From assembly GCA_040752415.1 (NCBI GenBank), contig JBFMGU010000027.1:1-60124 (forward strand): a stretch of 60,124 nucleotides of DNA, in the 5' to 3' direction. The translations under genes and the position numbers were made by a program. Positions 7,326 to 36,240 of this stretch are shown here, one piece after another; the first letter of the stretch is position 1, and every line of letters begins with the position of its first letter. The notes beneath the pieces were generated by a model that worked only from the letters and a program-made list of their open reading frames with translations, was not told the origin of the DNA and did no database searches. The DNA is from Myxococcota bacterium. Its GTDB lineage: Bacteria; Myxococcota; JACRCW01.

Positions 7326-8495
7326 TCACGGGCGGAACATCAGGTAGACCGGCACGAACAGCGCGGCGAAGAACGTCGCTGCCGCGGCCAGTGGCATCGT
7401 CACCGAGAACCCGGCGGACATGATCACGACGGAGATCGTCGTACCACCGAACGCGATGAGCAGGGCCACGCGCATGGCCACCCACCGTCCCAACGTCACC
7501 GTCGCCCTCAGCCGACGCAGTGCCTGACGCTGGCGCACGTTCAGGGTCCGCCAGACCGCGCCGTGGGTGGCCCACCTCTCAAACGCGCGCGACGCGGCGG
7601 CGTTGTGGTCCAGGAGCTCATTGAGCTGATGGAAGCACCGCTCCGCCTCGTCGGGCGTGGCGTCCTCCATGCGCGTGCCCACGTGGTGCAAGAGCTGACG
7701 GACGTCTGCCTCCTCCGTGCCCATGGCCCACGCACGAATGAGCGGGGAGAGCGCCCGGGCGTGAGTCGTGACGTCGTCGGCAACCTGGAACGCGTCCGGG
7801 GTGGCCACTGCGCACTGGCGCGGCCGACCGGGGTTCACCATCAGCCGCACACCTTCCGGGATGATCTCGACGGCGGGCCACATCACCATGGGGATGTCGG
7901 CCCAACAGCGGTACGCGCGGCCCGCCACGACGTACTCGATCTCGTACAGCGTGGCGAAGAAGGGATTCCGGCGCAGGATCCGGAAGGGGTGGGCTTCCCC
8001 GCCGACGAGGACACGCCAGCGCCGCAACGCATACCGCAGTCCCCATCCGGACGCCGCGGCGATCAAGAGCACCATGAAGAGCACGGCCACGAACTCCACG
8101 TCGTGGAAATGGTCCGGCTCGTCGTCGACGTGGAGCGCCAGGAACGTGGGCTCGGCGGGGTCCACGCGCGCGGTGATCACCTGTCCCTCGGACAGCGCCA
8201 GCAGGTCCGTCCCGAACGCGTTGCGCTGCACCAGCTGGACGCGGCCCTCCACGGTGACCGCGAGCTCGATGGTGGGCGGCCCCGGGAGGATTCCGTCGTC
8301 ATGAAACGTCCGGACCACCCGCGCGGGAACAACCAGCCCCTCCTGCCAGATGCGTTGCCGCCGCAGCTCCTCGACGCGCTCGCCCACCAGCGCCACCACC
8401 AGCACCGGCGCCGCCGCCAGCAGCCCCACCGTCAGCACGACGAGCAGCAGGAGCTGGTTGCGGACCGGCGGGCTGAGGCGACGGACGCTGGACAT
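7326..8495 (-). CDS. Hypothetical membrane protein (DUF3592-like N-terminal module)
   Basis: TM, then VPARVV...GQVITARVDPAEP, then TM pattern; C-terminal TM pair; GC3-rich frame. Confidence 0.65.
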   Translation of the reverse strand: MSSVRRLSPPVRNQLLLLVVLTVGLLAAAPVLVVALVGERVEELRRQRIWQEGLVVPARVVRTFHDDGILPGPPTIELAVTVEGRVQLVQRNAFGTDLLALSEGQVITARVDPAEPTFLALHVDDEPDHFHDVEFVAVLFMVLLIAAASGWGLRYALRRWRVLVGGEAHPFRILRRNPFFATLYEIEYVVAGRAYRCWADIPMVMWPAVEIIPEGVRLMVNPGRPRQCAVATPDAFQVADDVTTHARALSPLIRAWAMGTEEADVRQLLHHVGTRMEDATPDEAERCFHQLNELLDHNAAASRAFERWATHGAVWRTLNVRQRQALRRLRATVTLGRWVAMRVALLIAFGGTTISVVIMSAGFSVTMPLAAAATFFAALFVPVYLMFRP

Positions 8496-31851: not shown

Positions 31852-32862
31852 TCAGCGGCCGGCGTCCGGGCGTCGACACACCGGTGAGTCCGCAAGCGCC
31901 GACGCACAGTCTCCGGCCTCCGCCCGCTCCGTCCGACACACCAGCGTGTCCGACGGAGGATCTCCCCGCTGACCCACCCGCGGATAGGCGTCGCAGGCAT
32001 TGAGGCACTCCTGCGTCGTCGGGAACGCGTCGCATTGCGCGGCCATCACGCGGCAGTAGTGGGCGCAATCATCCCGACAGTAGAAGCCGAAGTACTCCGC
32101 CAGGTGTCCGCAGTACCTCGGGTCCGACGCCACCAGGCCCACGTAGTGGATGCGACACTGCAACGTGTTGCCGCTGGTCTCTCCGGGCAGACCCGTCTCC
32201 GGGAAGAGTGCGCACGCGGATTGGCATTCCTCCGACGTGGCGTGCATGCGTTGCTCGTTCTCCGCGCAGTAGGACATCTGCACGTCGCAGTAGGTGGTGC
32301 AATCCTGTGGCAGCGTGGCAATGAAACCCGCGTCCACCCCGCCCTGTCCGCCGGGGCTCCACACGTCGCAACAGCCCACGCGCCACTCGCGCTCCGCCGT
32401 GGCCAGCACGGTTCCTTCGCGGGAGACCAGGTCCACAGCCACCTGCACCGCGTGCTCCGTCCACGCGCTGGGCTCCACGTCCTGTTGCAGCAGCATGGGA
32501 ATCCCGTCGTCCTCGAAAGCGCCGTCCACCGACGTCAGCGAGACGTAGGAGCGCCCCTGTCCCAGGGAACGGTTGCTATCGCGCAGTGCGTAGCGGACCA
32601 CCAGGCCACGCGTGTTCTCGTCGACACCGACGTCACCGACGCGCAGGCTCAGCCACACGTGATGGCCGCCCTGGGGACCCTCCACCAGGCGAACCGCGCC
32701 GCCGTTGGAAACCTCGTGATGCCCCTGCCCCGACGCGGCCGCCCCCAGGCTCAGCTTCCCGTCGGCGGTGCCGGCATCCGCGCCTTCTTGCGTTGGGGAG
32801 GCGCAAGCCACCAGGCCCAGCACCAGGACGCAGGGAAATCTCACGCTCTCGAGGCTACCCAT
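31852..32862 (-). CDS. Hypothetical lipoprotein with two Cys-rich repeats
   Basis: GGAGGAG RBS; lipobox LVAC; GPQGGHHVW motif; repeated DCxxYC...ECxxAC..(F/Y)P...TLxCR units. Confidence 0.75.
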   Translation of the reverse strand: MGSLESVRFPCVLVLGLVACASPTQEGADAGTADGKLSLGAAASGQGHHEVSNGGAVRLVEGPQGGHHVWLSLRVGDVGVDENTRGLVVRYALRDSNRSLGQGRSYVSLTSVDGAFEDDGIPMLLQQDVEPSAWTEHAVQVAVDLVSREGTVLATAEREWRVGCCDVWSPGGQGGVDAGFIATLPQDCTTYCDVQMSYCAENEQRMHATSEECQSACALFPETGLPGETSGNTLQCRIHYVGLVASDPRYCGHLAEYFGFYCRDDCAHYCRVMAAQCDAFPTTQECLNACDAYPRVGQRGDPPSDTLVCRTERAEAGDCASALADSPVCRRPDAGR

Positions 32863-32944
32863 CGCTCCTCCCGACGACAACAAGGCCCGATGTGCACGCT
32901 CCAGGCCAGCCTGTTATGTCGGGTGCGGGGGTTGGAGGTAGCGC

Positions 32945-33559
32945 ATGTCCCTGAGCATCCGTCTCTACACTGACTTTGTTTGACCGTTCTGCTTCATCGC
33001 GGAGCGCAGCAGCCTGGTCAGGTTGCAGGAAAACTACGACATCGAGATCGACTGGCGCGGCTTTGAGCTTCACCCGGAGACCCCGGAGGGCGGCATGCCC
33101 ATCACGCGGCTCTTCCCGGCATCCCGCGTTGGTCCCATGCATGAACGTCTTAAGAACTTTGCCGCGGAGTTCGGCATCACCGGCATGATTCCCTCCCAAC
33201 ACATTCCCAACACGCGGCGCGCGCTCGCCGTCGCCGAGTGGGCACGGGAGAAGGGCAAGCTGACGCCTTTCCGTCACCGCGCCATGGATGCCTATTGGCT
33301 CGAGGGAAAGAACGTGGAGGACGTGAAGGTGCTGCAGGAGGTGGCCACCGCCGCCGGCCTGCCCGCCGAGGAAGTCCCCGCCGCCATGAATGACGAGCGC
33401 TACCTCGCGCGCATCGACGACACCCGCGCCGAGGCCAACGAGATGGGCGTGACCGGCATTCCCACGTTCATCTTTGGCAACCTCGCCGTCGTGGGCTGCC
33501 AGCCGTATGAAGTGCTGGAGCGGGTGGCGCTGCGCGCCGGTGCCAAGCCGAGGAAGTGA
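32945..33559 (+). CDS. DsbA/FrnE-family thiol-disulfide oxidoreductase, selenoprotein (UxxC)
   Basis: GGAGGT RBS 32934-32939, ATG 32945, MSLSIRLYTDFV-[TGA 32981-32983]-PFCFIAE in frame with WRGFELHPETP...GVTGIPTFIF...GCQP. Confidence 0.9.
33009..33026 (+). promoter_or_regulatory. Bacterial SECIS element
   Basis: Hairpin GCAGCCT-GGTC-AGGTTGC; apical loop begins 32 nt after the TGA, starts with G and contains GU. Confidence 0.75.
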
Positions 33560-34102
33560 TCACGCCGCGGGAGGAGGCGTGAGGTCTTTCTGCAGTTGCG
33601 CCAAGTCCTCGTCGGAGAGGCGCCGGCTGTGGCGTTGCACCTTGGCCAGCAGCTCGGGGTCCTTCACGTACTCCACCGCGCACGTCGTGTGGACGTACGC
33701 TGCTCCGTCGGGGGGAACGGAGCCGGGCGGACGGGCCACGGCCACGCGCAGCATCCCCTTGTCGATGGGCTGTCGGCAGGACTGACAGCGTGACCGCGCC
33801 GTGGGCGCATGCTCCGCGAACGGGAACGGCGGACGCGCGGTGTCAATGGATTCGGCAATGGCCTGGTCCACTTCCGCCCGATTGGGCACCGCGCCGGTGA
33901 ACGTCTCCAGCGTCTCCTTGACGAGCTGCGGCTTCTTGCGCGCGGCACAGAGCAGGTGATGCCACTGGTGCGTCGCGCCGCCTTCCGGATCAAACGCGTT
34001 GGCGGCCTCCTCACCAAAACGCAGCTCACCCTTCCCAATCTTCTCCCTGCACGTTCGACACGACGCGCGCCCCGACTTCGCCTCCTCGATCATGTGCGGC
34101 AT
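33560..34102 (-). CDS. Tandem PARP-type zinc finger protein
   Basis: EEAKSGRASCRTC...IGKGELR...WHHLLC and EHAPTARSRCQSC...IDKGMLR...VHTTC; GGAGGT RBS before ATG 34102. Confidence 0.85.
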   Translation of the reverse strand: MPHMIEEAKSGRASCRTCREKIGKGELRFGEEAANAFDPEGGATHQWHHLLCAARKKPQLVKETLETFTGAVPNRAEVDQAIAESIDTARPPFPFAEHAPTARSRCQSCRQPIDKGMLRVAVARPPGSVPPDGAAYVHTTCAVEYVKDPELLAKVQRHSRRLSDEDLAQLQKDLTPPPAA

Positions 34103-34176
34103 GGCGACACCTCCACCGGGTCCTTCCCGTACGCTCAAGGTGTAGAGCCAGGCGCGCCGGGAAGCCAAGAAATCCG

Positions 34177-36240
34177 TCACTTGCTCTCGAACGACTCCAC
34201 GCCCTGCCACCCCTCCGGCGCGCCGTGTTTGGCGTGGTGCTCACAGCGCTTCGCGTAGAACTGCGCAGCCCCGTCGGCGGGATTGCGCTGCAGCACCTGT
34301 TGGAACCCGGCCGCCGCCTCGGTGAACCGACCCGCGAAGTGGTGCTCCAGCGCCTGCTCGAACAGCTCCCGTGTGGCGTCCTTGCCCGTGCGCACGTCGT
34401 CATCGTCGCCGGCGTAGACCTCGAAGAGGAGGACGGGATGCTGCTTGCCCTTCACCCGCACGCGCCCCAGCGGCCGGCTCGCGGGGGGATGGACACTGCC
34501 GCGCAGGCTGTTCTCCGTCGCCACCACGGACGCGCCGTAGTACTTGCTGAGCCCTTCCACGCGCGAGGCCAGGTTCACCGCGTCGGAGATCACCGTCCCC
34601 TCCAGCCGCTTCTCCTCCCCCACCACGCCGAGCATGAGCGTGCCGGTGTGCATGCCAATGCCCATGCGGATGGGGTCCACGCCGCGCGCGGCCAGCTTGG
34701 CATTCACGCTTCGCAGCTCGACGAGGATGTCCACCGCGCAGCGCAGCGCGTCCTCGGGACTGGTCGGGAAGAGCGCCATGATCGCGTCGCCAATGTACTT
34801 GTCGATGAACCCGTGGTGACGCCGGATGACCGGCCCAATCTCCCGCATGTACCCGTTGATGAACTCAAAGGTCTCGCGCGGGGTCATGCGCTCGCTGCGG
34901 TCCGTGAAGGAGCGGATGTCCGTGAACAACACGGTCATCTCCAGCTGCACCTGGTCACCCAGCTTGACGTCGACAATGTTGTCCAGCTTCAGGTGATGCA
35001 GGAACTCCCGCGGCACGAAGCGCGCAAACGACTCCGCCATGTGCGTCTGCGTCTCCAGCGCCTTCTGCTGGACGGCCAGCTTCTCGCGGTTCAGCCGGTT
35101 GGTGCGATCCGCCAGGCCAAAGGAGAACAGGACCATCTGCAGCGCGGCTCCCGCTACGACGCCGTAGGAGAAGATCGCCGGGACCAGGCCGCTGCCCGCC
35201 ATGGTGCTGAGGTTGGCGGCGAACATGAACGCCAGCTGCGCCACCGCAAAGTAGGAGGCAGACCGGTTGCCCTTGACCCACAGGTACACGCTGACACCGA
35301 CGAGCGTCCACGGCACCGGGATCATCAACACCATGCTGATGATCAGCGACTTGTCGAACGCGACGTACGACGTGAACAGGTTGATGGGGCACAACCACAA
35401 CGCAAAGCGAAGAAAGCGGTCGACGCGCGGCGTGAGCTCCCGCGTGCGCAGGAAGGTCCGACCCAGCTGCACGGTCAGGCCGATCCCGACGGTGAAGTGC
35501 GTGGCAATGAGCTGCGACGTCCAAGGCACCAGCTCCGGGAACATCACGTTGAGCATGCCGTGGTCGATGGGAAGCGTGGGCGCCATGGTCCCCACCCACA
35601 GCGCGTACCAGAGCGAATTGCTCTCCCTCAGCGCGATGCCTATGAACAGGTTGTACAGCACCATGATCAGCGCCATGCCGAAGAAGATGCCGAAGAACAC
35701 CATGACCCACGCGTCGGTGGCGCGGAGGCGCGCGTCGCTGAGGAAGCGCATGGGGAAGTTGGCGTTCCACTGCGTCTCCGCGCGCACGTAGATGGCCACG
35801 TCGACGCTGCGCGGCAGGTCCAACCGGAACACCGGCTGGCGGTGACGCACGTCCGCCTCGTGGACATGGCGCAGGCCGCCGGCGTGGCGCTGCACGGTCC
35901 CGTCAGGGAGGAGGACAAAGAGCTGGATGGACTCGACGAGCGCGTTGTCCAGCATCAGCAGCCACGGTTCCGTCGTCGTGCGCTGGTTGCGAACGGTGAA
36001 ACGCAGCCAGAAGGTCCCGCCCTCAAAGCCGAACGAGGGATGACCCTCCACGGGCTTGAACTGCTCGCTGACGCGGGCCTGGTCCAACGTCATCGCCGGG
36101 TCGGCGCCGGTGATGACCTGGAGCGCGGACGAGACCTCGAGCTCGTGGGTCTCGTCGGTGAGGACCAGGGGTGCTGCGGGATTCCCGTCGTGGACGGAGA
36201 GCGCGGAGGCCAGGCACAGCGCAATCAGCAGCATGACCAC
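34177..36240 (-). CDS. 7TM-DISM receptor class III adenylate/guanylate cyclase
   Basis: DISMED2-like FWLRF...HRQPVF, seven TM helices, FTDIRSFT, DKYIGDAIM and SDAVNLASRVE. Confidence 0.92.
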   Translation of the reverse strand: MVMLLIALCLASALSVHDGNPAAPLVLTDETHELEVSSALQVITGADPAMTLDQARVSEQFKPVEGHPSFGFEGGTFWLRFTVRNQRTTTEPWLLMLDNALVESIQLFVLLPDGTVQRHAGGLRHVHEADVRHRQPVFRLDLPRSVDVAIYVRAETQWNANFPMRFLSDARLRATDAWVMVFFGIFFGMALIMVLYNLFIGIALRESNSLWYALWVGTMAPTLPIDHGMLNVMFPELVPWTSQLIATHFTVGIGLTVQLGRTFLRTRELTPRVDRFLRFALWLCPINLFTSYVAFDKSLIISMVLMIPVPWTLVGVSVYLWVKGNRSASYFAVAQLAFMFAANLSTMAGSGLVPAIFSYGVVAGAALQMVLFSFGLADRTNRLNREKLAVQQKALETQTHMAESFARFVPREFLHHLKLDNIVDVKLGDQVQLEMTVLFTDIRSFTDRSERMTPRETFEFINGYMREIGPVIRRHHGFIDKYIGDAIMALFPTSPEDALRCAVDILVELRSVNAKLAARGVDPIRMGIGMHTGTLMLGVVGEEKRLEGTVISDAVNLASRVEGLSKYYGASVVATENSLRGSVHPPASRPLGRVRVKGKQHPVLLFEVYAGDDDDVRTGKDATRELFEQALEHHFAGRFTEAAAGFQQVLQRNPADGAAQFYAKRCEHHAKHGAPEGWQGVESFESK

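Follow-up and report, generated by a model that had tools for sequence, protein, structure and literature searches.

A probable selenoprotein gene of the FrnE-type DsbA family in a Myxococcota bacterium

The window analyzed here is a DNA stretch of 60,124 nucleotides from a Myxococcota bacterium (contig JBFMGU010000027.1). With a probability of about 0.93, judged from comparative sequence data, positions 32945-33559 of the window are a genuine selenoprotein gene. It is predicted to encode an FrnE-type oxidoreductase of the DsbA family in which selenocysteine (Sec) is U13, the first residue of the redox motif U13-P-F-C16. The reading frame, the Sec/Cys column in homologues, a conserved hairpin 3' of the UGA and the Sec machinery of the genome were all observed; from these we infer that Sec is inserted at the UGA.

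Reading frame, start codon and protein family

The start of the gene was read from the sequence. The motif GGAGGT at 32934-32939 is separated by a spacer of 5 nt from ATG at 32945-32947, in agreement with the strong ribosome-binding site and start codon of the original prediction. A start further upstream is excluded, because a TAG stands two codons 5' of this ATG. The frame comprises 204 codons with an in-frame TGA at 32981-32983, and its terminal stop is also TGA (33557-33559). With TGA read as U, translation gives MSLSIRLYTDFV-U-PFCFIAE and so on, which confirms the claim that the TGA and PFCFIAE are in frame with the 178-aa ORF listed mechanically from TTG 33023. The features of the locus are as follows.

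32934..32939, + strand: Shine-Dalgarno-like GGAGGT, 5 nt 5' of the start codon; direct reading
32945..33559, + strand: predicted FrnE/DsbA-like selenoprotein CDS, 204 residues; TGA=U translation, PF01323, FrnE match and homologue ends
32981..32983, + strand: putative Sec-encoding TGA, residue U13; in frame, and aligned with the first Cys of CP[FW]C or with TGA in homologues
32981..32992, + strand: redox motif U-P-F-C (UxxC); aligns with CPWC of FrnE in the PDB alignment
32985..33006, + strand: upstream, less conserved hairpin; MFE fold, overlaps the PFCFIAE codons
32996..32998, + strand: ATC start in the public gene call (187 aa, MAERSS...), 3' of the active site
33009..33026, + strand: predicted SECIS hairpin, 7-bp stem, GGUC apical loop at 33016-33019; loop 32 nt 3' of the UGA
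33023..33025, + strand: TTG start in the mechanical ORF list (178 aa), within the SECIS 3' arm
33461..33463, + strand: Pro173 in G-I-P-T-F, likely the cis-Pro loop of the thioredoxin fold; invariant in the alignment and aligned with GVPFF of FrnE, from which the role is proposed
33497..33499, + strand: Cys185 in V-V-G-C-Q-P, the sole Cys outside the motif; a clade feature, GAQ in most of the family

Homologues support both ends of this frame. In 25 of 25 TGA-containing forms, the eight codons 5' of the TGA correspond to the beta-1 strand of the family and to [YF][ST]D[FY][VI]; the second codon positions are near-invariant and the third positions vary. Such conservation at the protein level shows that the sequence upstream of the TGA is translated as part of the gene. 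At the other end, the C-termini of homologues fall within about 3 residues of the stop at 33557-33559. In the public protein collection this gene appears as a 187-aa product that begins with MAERSS at ATC 32996 and lacks U-P-F-C. The expectation that annotation would yield a truncated protein without its active site was therefore correct, except that the public start is ATC 32996 and not 33023.

The Pfam family PF01323 (DSBA) matched residues 5-192 of the predicted protein (E 1.3e-36), and the match therefore spans the TGA. The best relative of solved structure was FrnE of D. radiodurans (5cp1/5cnw; E 2.4e-20), in which the first Cys of CPWC is aligned with U13. Both alignments start at residue 4-5. 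Since FrnE is the best PDB match and the motifs are aligned, the protein probably belongs with the FrnE subfamily (cd03024 / COG2761), and the proposed domain and the proposed position of the TGA at the first Cys of the FrnE-family motif are both borne out. No selenoprotein-specific model of NCBIfam scored above its cut-off; the best was NF041057, with 32 bits against a cut-off of 190.

The active site comes after just 12 residues, and for the FrnE subfamily a cytoplasmic location is predicted; on these grounds such a location is plausible for this protein. The C-terminal CxxxxC motif that many, although not all, members of the FrnE subfamily carry is absent, the protein ending at residue 204; this is still compatible with membership in the subfamily. 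Cys185 stands in G-C-Q-P in the window clade, versus G-A-Q in most of the family including FrnE. As an extra residue linked to Sec it was considered and rejected: it is also found in the Cys forms L023, L044, L057 and L077, and it is absent from the group with the other SECIS type described below. Given the missing CxxxxC tail, Cys185 might have a part in regenerating the active site.

Two further sets of homologues were noted. The same genome encodes a Cys paralogue (L039, G000:C43:9536-10117) with 28% identity and the motif CPWC. Its N-terminus is longer and contains LSAVGLVSACS, which may be a lipoprotein signal, so that L039 is possibly an exported counterpart. Close Cys-form homologues were also seen in MAGs of Asgard archaea (Promethearchaeia and Hodarchaeota; L058, L061, L063, L071, L073 and L087). 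DsbA-like selenoproteins are mentioned for Asgard archaea in a 2026 review (PMC13188914).

The gene stands between a divergent 343-aa ORF at 31852-32883 (-), which had no Pfam match, and a convergent ORF at 33560-34210 (-) that abuts its stop codon. The latter encodes 216 aa with two zinc fingers of the PARP type (PF00645, E 4.8e-24); this domain is more familiar from PARP and DNA ligase III of eukaryotes. A 7TMR-DISM adenylate/guanylate cyclase and a DUF2330 protein are encoded farther out. When the flanking ORFs of 20 loci were compared all-against-all by BLAST, none of the neighbours was conserved; the matches were confined to the gene itself and to shadow ORFs antisense to it. The gene thus looks monocistronic, and its context gives no clue to the substrate.

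The hairpin downstream of the UGA

The hairpin GCAGCCU/GGUC/AGGUUGC spans 33009-33026, and positions 33016-33019 form its loop. The published bSECIS model, as given in the Fig. 2 legend of PMC13188914, specifies a loop of 3-9 nt with a G in its first two positions, a stem of 4-16 bp, a loop located 16-37 nt from the UGA, and an MFE of -7.5 kcal/mol or lower. All of these values are matched by the window hairpin (GGUC, 4 nt; 7 bp; 32 nt; -8.7 kcal/mol when folded alone), although the spacing of 32 nt is near the upper limit of the published range. The predicted SECIS hairpin with its loop 32 nt downstream was recovered, and it is conserved in orthologues, as detailed below.

By itself, however, the hairpin is indistinguishable from chance. 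In a shuffle test its fold had a z of -1.21, and 23 of 200 shuffles folded as well. Among 20000 random TGAs of the window genome, 9.7% passed a hairpin filter that asked for at least 7 bp, a G-containing loop and a spacing of 16-37 nt, and even the terminal stop TGA of the gene passed a looser version with a G-U-rich stem and a 9-nt loop. The shuffle z is uninformative here, as the real SECIS of E. coli fdhF gave 0.09. A scan of 32900-33150 against Rfam with E up to 10 returned no SECIS family, only a chance match to RAGATH-5 (E 2.5). The significance of the hairpin comes from comparative data.

We examined the region in an alignment of 15 orthologues (A2). In the SECIS helix, 98.1% of the cells were paired. 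Four of its pairs were constant, two varied on one side, and the basal pair was GC in ten sequences, CG in three and unpaired in two. Since the hairpin hardly varies, it offers little covariation, namely a single compensatory pair. For the two helices taken together, 91.6% of cells were paired, versus 28-49% when the partners were slid by 1-3 columns. The first of these helices (32985-33006) lies between the UGA and the SECIS; 85.8% of its cells were paired, and four of its eight pairs depart by unpaired cells only. It may have a function or may be a by-product of the conserved peptide PFCFIAE.

All 15 orthologues encode the Arg of the 3' arm by AGG, a rare codon in the window genome, where 1737 long ORFs use it for 3.0% of their Arg residues; in the same count, the TTG used in the window makes up 7.8% of Leu codons. 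The closest Cys forms (L023, L044 and L077) have CGG or CGC at that Arg, and the hairpin is absent from them. A further Cys form, L167 (genome G200), encodes the identical peptide SSLVRL through AGC AGC CTC GTG CGG CTC, with synonyms in place of all the codons that make up the hairpin, and no hairpin is formed. L167 is a natural control, which indicates that the nucleotide conservation of the hairpin is not explained by the peptide. From its sequence, L167 looks like a Sec-to-Cys revertant with a decayed SECIS.

The original prediction had likened the hairpin to the SECIS of E. coli fdhF. This applies to the apical loop, which is GGUC in both, to the G/C-rich stem and to the location within the coding sequence just 3' of the Sec-UGA. 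It does not extend to the spacing or to the lower stem. In fdhF of E. coli K-12 the loop (GCA-GGUC-UGC) lies 18 nt after the UGA, versus 32 nt in the window, and one long interrupted stem begins next to the UGA, whereas the window has a perfect 7-bp hairpin that follows a separate, poorly conserved one. Unlike in the fdhF SECIS, no bulged U was seen in the window hairpin.

Selenocysteine machinery and the codon at the active-site column

The window assembly comprises 11.0 Mb in 520 contigs and was estimated to be 96.8% complete with 4.29% contamination. As the original prediction had asked for a search for sel genes, it is relevant that all four were found, each above its curated cut-off: tRNA-Sec (selC) with 73.8 bits against a cut-off of 47 and, according to ARAGORN, the anticodon TCA; SelA with 531 bits; SelB with 283.5 bits in a 695-aa frame, where the model's C-terminal end gave another match; and SelD with 304.7 bits and an in-frame TGA of its own in SSGG-U-AAK. 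These genes reside on contigs other than that of the window. Their contigs resemble the window contig in composition (GC 0.68-0.70, genome 0.689; tetranucleotide r 0.986-0.995), so that contamination is an unlikely source.

Other candidate selenoproteins were observed in the same genome. SelD itself is one (G000:C171:7395-8327, L018), with its TGA at contig position 7422 and a hairpin 16 nt after the UGA. Four of the 24 AhpC/TSA-family matches contained one TGA, in each case at the redox position, the motifs being FTPG-U-T, YEY-U-PVC, LPG-U-ASC and HFG-U-LLC. These peroxiredoxin (Prx)-type genes of G000 lie at C390 ~16513 (-), C14 ~24682 (-), C57 ~31551 (+) and C510 ~70834 (-). In each, a hairpin of 7 bp follows, its loop containing a G and lying 16-25 nt 3' of the TGA, and by this sequence evidence the four are likely further selenoproteins. 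Together with SelD and the gene described here, all six TGA-containing redox genes of the genome are followed, 16-32 nt downstream, by a hairpin of 7 bp whose loop of 4-5 nt contains a G, as against the 9.7% of random TGAs given above. An internal stop was found in none of the nine matches to the molybdopterin oxidoreductase family (PF00384), and hence no Sec formate dehydrogenase with this query. The result is out of the ordinary, given that FdhA is said to have the widest distribution of all bacterial selenoproteins (PMC13188914).

We then compared the codon at the active-site column among homologues, for which either Cys or TGA had been anticipated. Among 61 related genomes, the best six matches outside the window genome had TGA in three cases (56, 54 and 38% identity) and Cys in the other three (52, 38 and 38% identity). 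In a scan with one genome per GTDB species, in which 80 of 574 relatives were kept, the codon was TGA in 21 loci, TGT in 32 and TGC in 27; these counts are biased to Cys forms because one of the two search patterns contains Cys. Every one of the 59 loci without TGA had Cys, and never Trp or Gly. Among loci with at least 45% identity, TGA was present in 13 of 15. The MAGs with TGA forms are labelled as Binatia, Chloroflexi/Dehalococcoidales/Anaerolineae, Thermoanaerobaculia, Myxococcales/Anaeromyxobacteraceae, Nitrospinota, Dormiibacterota, Eisenbacteria, Bacillota and Desulfomonile.

A six-frame search of 401 genomes of the phylum, free of this bias, gave a match at E 1e-30 or lower in 170, a tally that includes one unpublished genome (G195); none of the specific claims depends on that genome. 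Counted by hand, 102 among the 150 matches listed had one TGA and 48 had none; for matches listed at E 2.5e-50 or lower, the numbers were 55 with TGA versus 14 without, the window's own genome counted in. We sampled 40 of the phylum loci. All 38 TGA rows (20 of lower and 18 of higher identity) had the TGA at the active-site column, and the two rows scored as having none turned out to be a partial match with TGA at the column and a locus with TGT. The hairpin motif was present in 20 of these 40 loci, namely in 18 of 18 high-identity TGA rows, in the TGA-bearing partial match and in one locus of the lower tier. The species scan and the phylum samples come from the same species collection, and the counts are not additive.

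These data bear on three other explanations. The TGA could be a nonsense mutation or an assembly error, in which case the gene would be a pseudogene or would really have Cys at this position. The fragmentation of the assembly leaves some room for an error, but TGA is found at this column in dozens of independent genomes that belong to several phyla, the frame is intact on both sides of it with upstream codons conserved as protein, and it is accompanied by the conserved hairpin. This reading is already contradicted by the comparative sequence data, and we consider it scarcely credible. Equally negligible in our view is that near-cognate decoding or a variant genetic code places Trp, Cys or Gly at the UGA in lieu of Sec. 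Against this stand the Cys at the column of all loci without TGA, and the complete Sec machinery and SECIS. Moreover, the gene itself terminates with TGA, at a position where homologues end as well, so TGA is a stop in this organism.

Very unlikely, if by a shade less so, is a true start 3' of the TGA, at ATC 32996, TTG 33023 or later, which would yield a domain without the redox motif and turn the 12 upstream codons into a leader or untranslated sequence. Both the public call and the mechanical ORF list give such a start. However, GGAGGT stands 5 nt 5' of ATG 32945, the 12 codons encode the conserved beta-1 strand and the motif [YF][ST]D[FY][VI], with synonymous third-position variation in all 25 TGA forms, and the Pfam and FrnE alignments already begin in this segment. 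TTG 33023, in addition, sits within the conserved hairpin. A selenoprotein translated from ATG 32945 is the reading that we retain.

Predicted function, known relatives and distribution of the Sec form

In the proposed mechanism, SelB carrying Sec-tRNA(Sec) would bind the hairpin at 33009-33026 through its GGUC loop and deliver Sec to the UGA at 32981, while the UGA at 33557 would be read as a stop. The product would be a 204-residue FrnE-type thiol-disulfide oxidoreductase with Sec as the nucleophilic first residue of the CxxC-type motif. Its biochemical function, which we infer from the weakly matching FrnE (with an extra C-terminal tail), may be that of a disulfide reductase or isomerase working through a selenenylsulfide intermediate between U13 and C16, presumably in the cytoplasm.

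Selenoproteins of this kind have been in print since 2005-2006; that DsbA-like selenoproteins exist in bacteria was also stated in the original prediction. Zhang et al. (2005, PMC1088965) described DsbA-like (COG2761) proteins with UxxC, nine sequences in the Sargasso Sea data, as a new family of selenoproteins, for which a SECIS was predicted. DsbA-like selenoproteins were then reported in complete genomes, including those of Anaeromyxobacter dehalogenans, Desulfovibrio desulfuricans and Desulfotomaculum reducens (Zhang et al. 2006, PMC1794560), and the 2026 review lists "DsbA-like protein form 1, PF01323, UxxC" (PMC13188914). With this form, as these sources describe it, the window gene shares PF01323, UxxC with Sec in first place and a bacterial SECIS directly downstream, and nothing essential differs. 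Form 1 is reported from Anaeromyxobacter dehalogenans, and the MAGs labelled Anaeromyxobacteraceae in our data carry the same TGA and hairpin. Since it fits form 1 in every tested feature, the window gene is a member of an already known family, and because family and mechanism have long been in print, it does not constitute a new kind of system. The gene is ordinary and not surprising to a specialist; automatic annotation still truncates the family.

The solved relative FrnE (DR_0659; PDB 5cnw, 5cp1) has in common with the window protein the DsbA-like thioredoxin domain, the place of the CP[WF]C-type motif and, probably, the lack of a signal peptide. It differs in having Cys in place of Sec, a length of 260 aa and a CxxxxC at 239-244, whereas the window protein, with 204 residues, is without this tail, and in having GAQ where the window protein has GCQP with Cys185. 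According to a review, drFrnE is active as a disulfide isomerase and in insulin reduction; it is regarded there as a cytoplasmic disulfide reductase whose regeneration goes through the C-terminal CxxxxC, which some FrnE proteins lack.

Periplasmic DsbA is a more distant relative. It has in common with the window protein a thioredoxin fold that carries a helical insertion, the cis-Pro loop and a motif of CxxC type (PF01323), but the window protein appears to have no room for a signal peptide before its beta-1 strand, and DsbA chains in the PDB matched it only weakly (E about 6e-4). The motif of periplasmic DsbA is CPHC, whereas that of the window protein is CP[FW]C-like.

Two putative SECIS designs were found among the TGA forms. 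The first is a near-invariant cassette, CAGCCUGGUCAGGCUG, which encodes SLVRL, lies 32 nt from the UGA and is apparently common to at least four phyla. The second, a hairpin that has a GGU- or GUG-containing loop and starts about 17 nt after the UGA, was present in eight TGA forms of the species scan. It also appeared in the MFE fold of 17 of 20 sampled phylum forms of lower identity, which have the motif WSDFV-U-PWCYVG; for the WSDFV-U-PWC group its distance from the UGA is about 21 nt. In a quick maximum-likelihood tree (IQ-TREE, 85 rows; L115 was left out as it contains X), the window clade had an SH-aLRT support of 99 and comprised 21 rows, 17 with TGA and four with Cys, and the second SECIS type was placed elsewhere. 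The Sec/Cys label requires at least five changes on this tree, three of them forced by well-supported branches.

These observations, and the Sec share of about two thirds of the listed phylum matches, suggest a broader picture that we put forward tentatively, at rather less than even odds for the whole: FrnE-type oxidoreductases of the phylum may normally, and not just rarely, be in the Sec form, with at least three to five switches between Sec and Cys and two SECIS designs in two orthologue groups. If so, Cys revertants with the same peptide but recoded codons would be ready-made controls for the constraint that a SECIS places on coding sequence, and if this is also absent from the selenoproteome literature, it would be a modest new evolutionary observation.

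For the gene itself, the finding means a correction of the annotation: the public 187-aa call misses the catalytic motif, and the true product is in all probability the 204-residue selenoprotein. For the organism, with its 11-Mb genome of 69% GC, the sequence data point to a working Sec system, whose predicted users among the families searched are SelD and thiol-redox enzymes, the latter being the FrnE-like protein, a peroxiredoxin with TxxU and three Prx-like proteins with UxxC.
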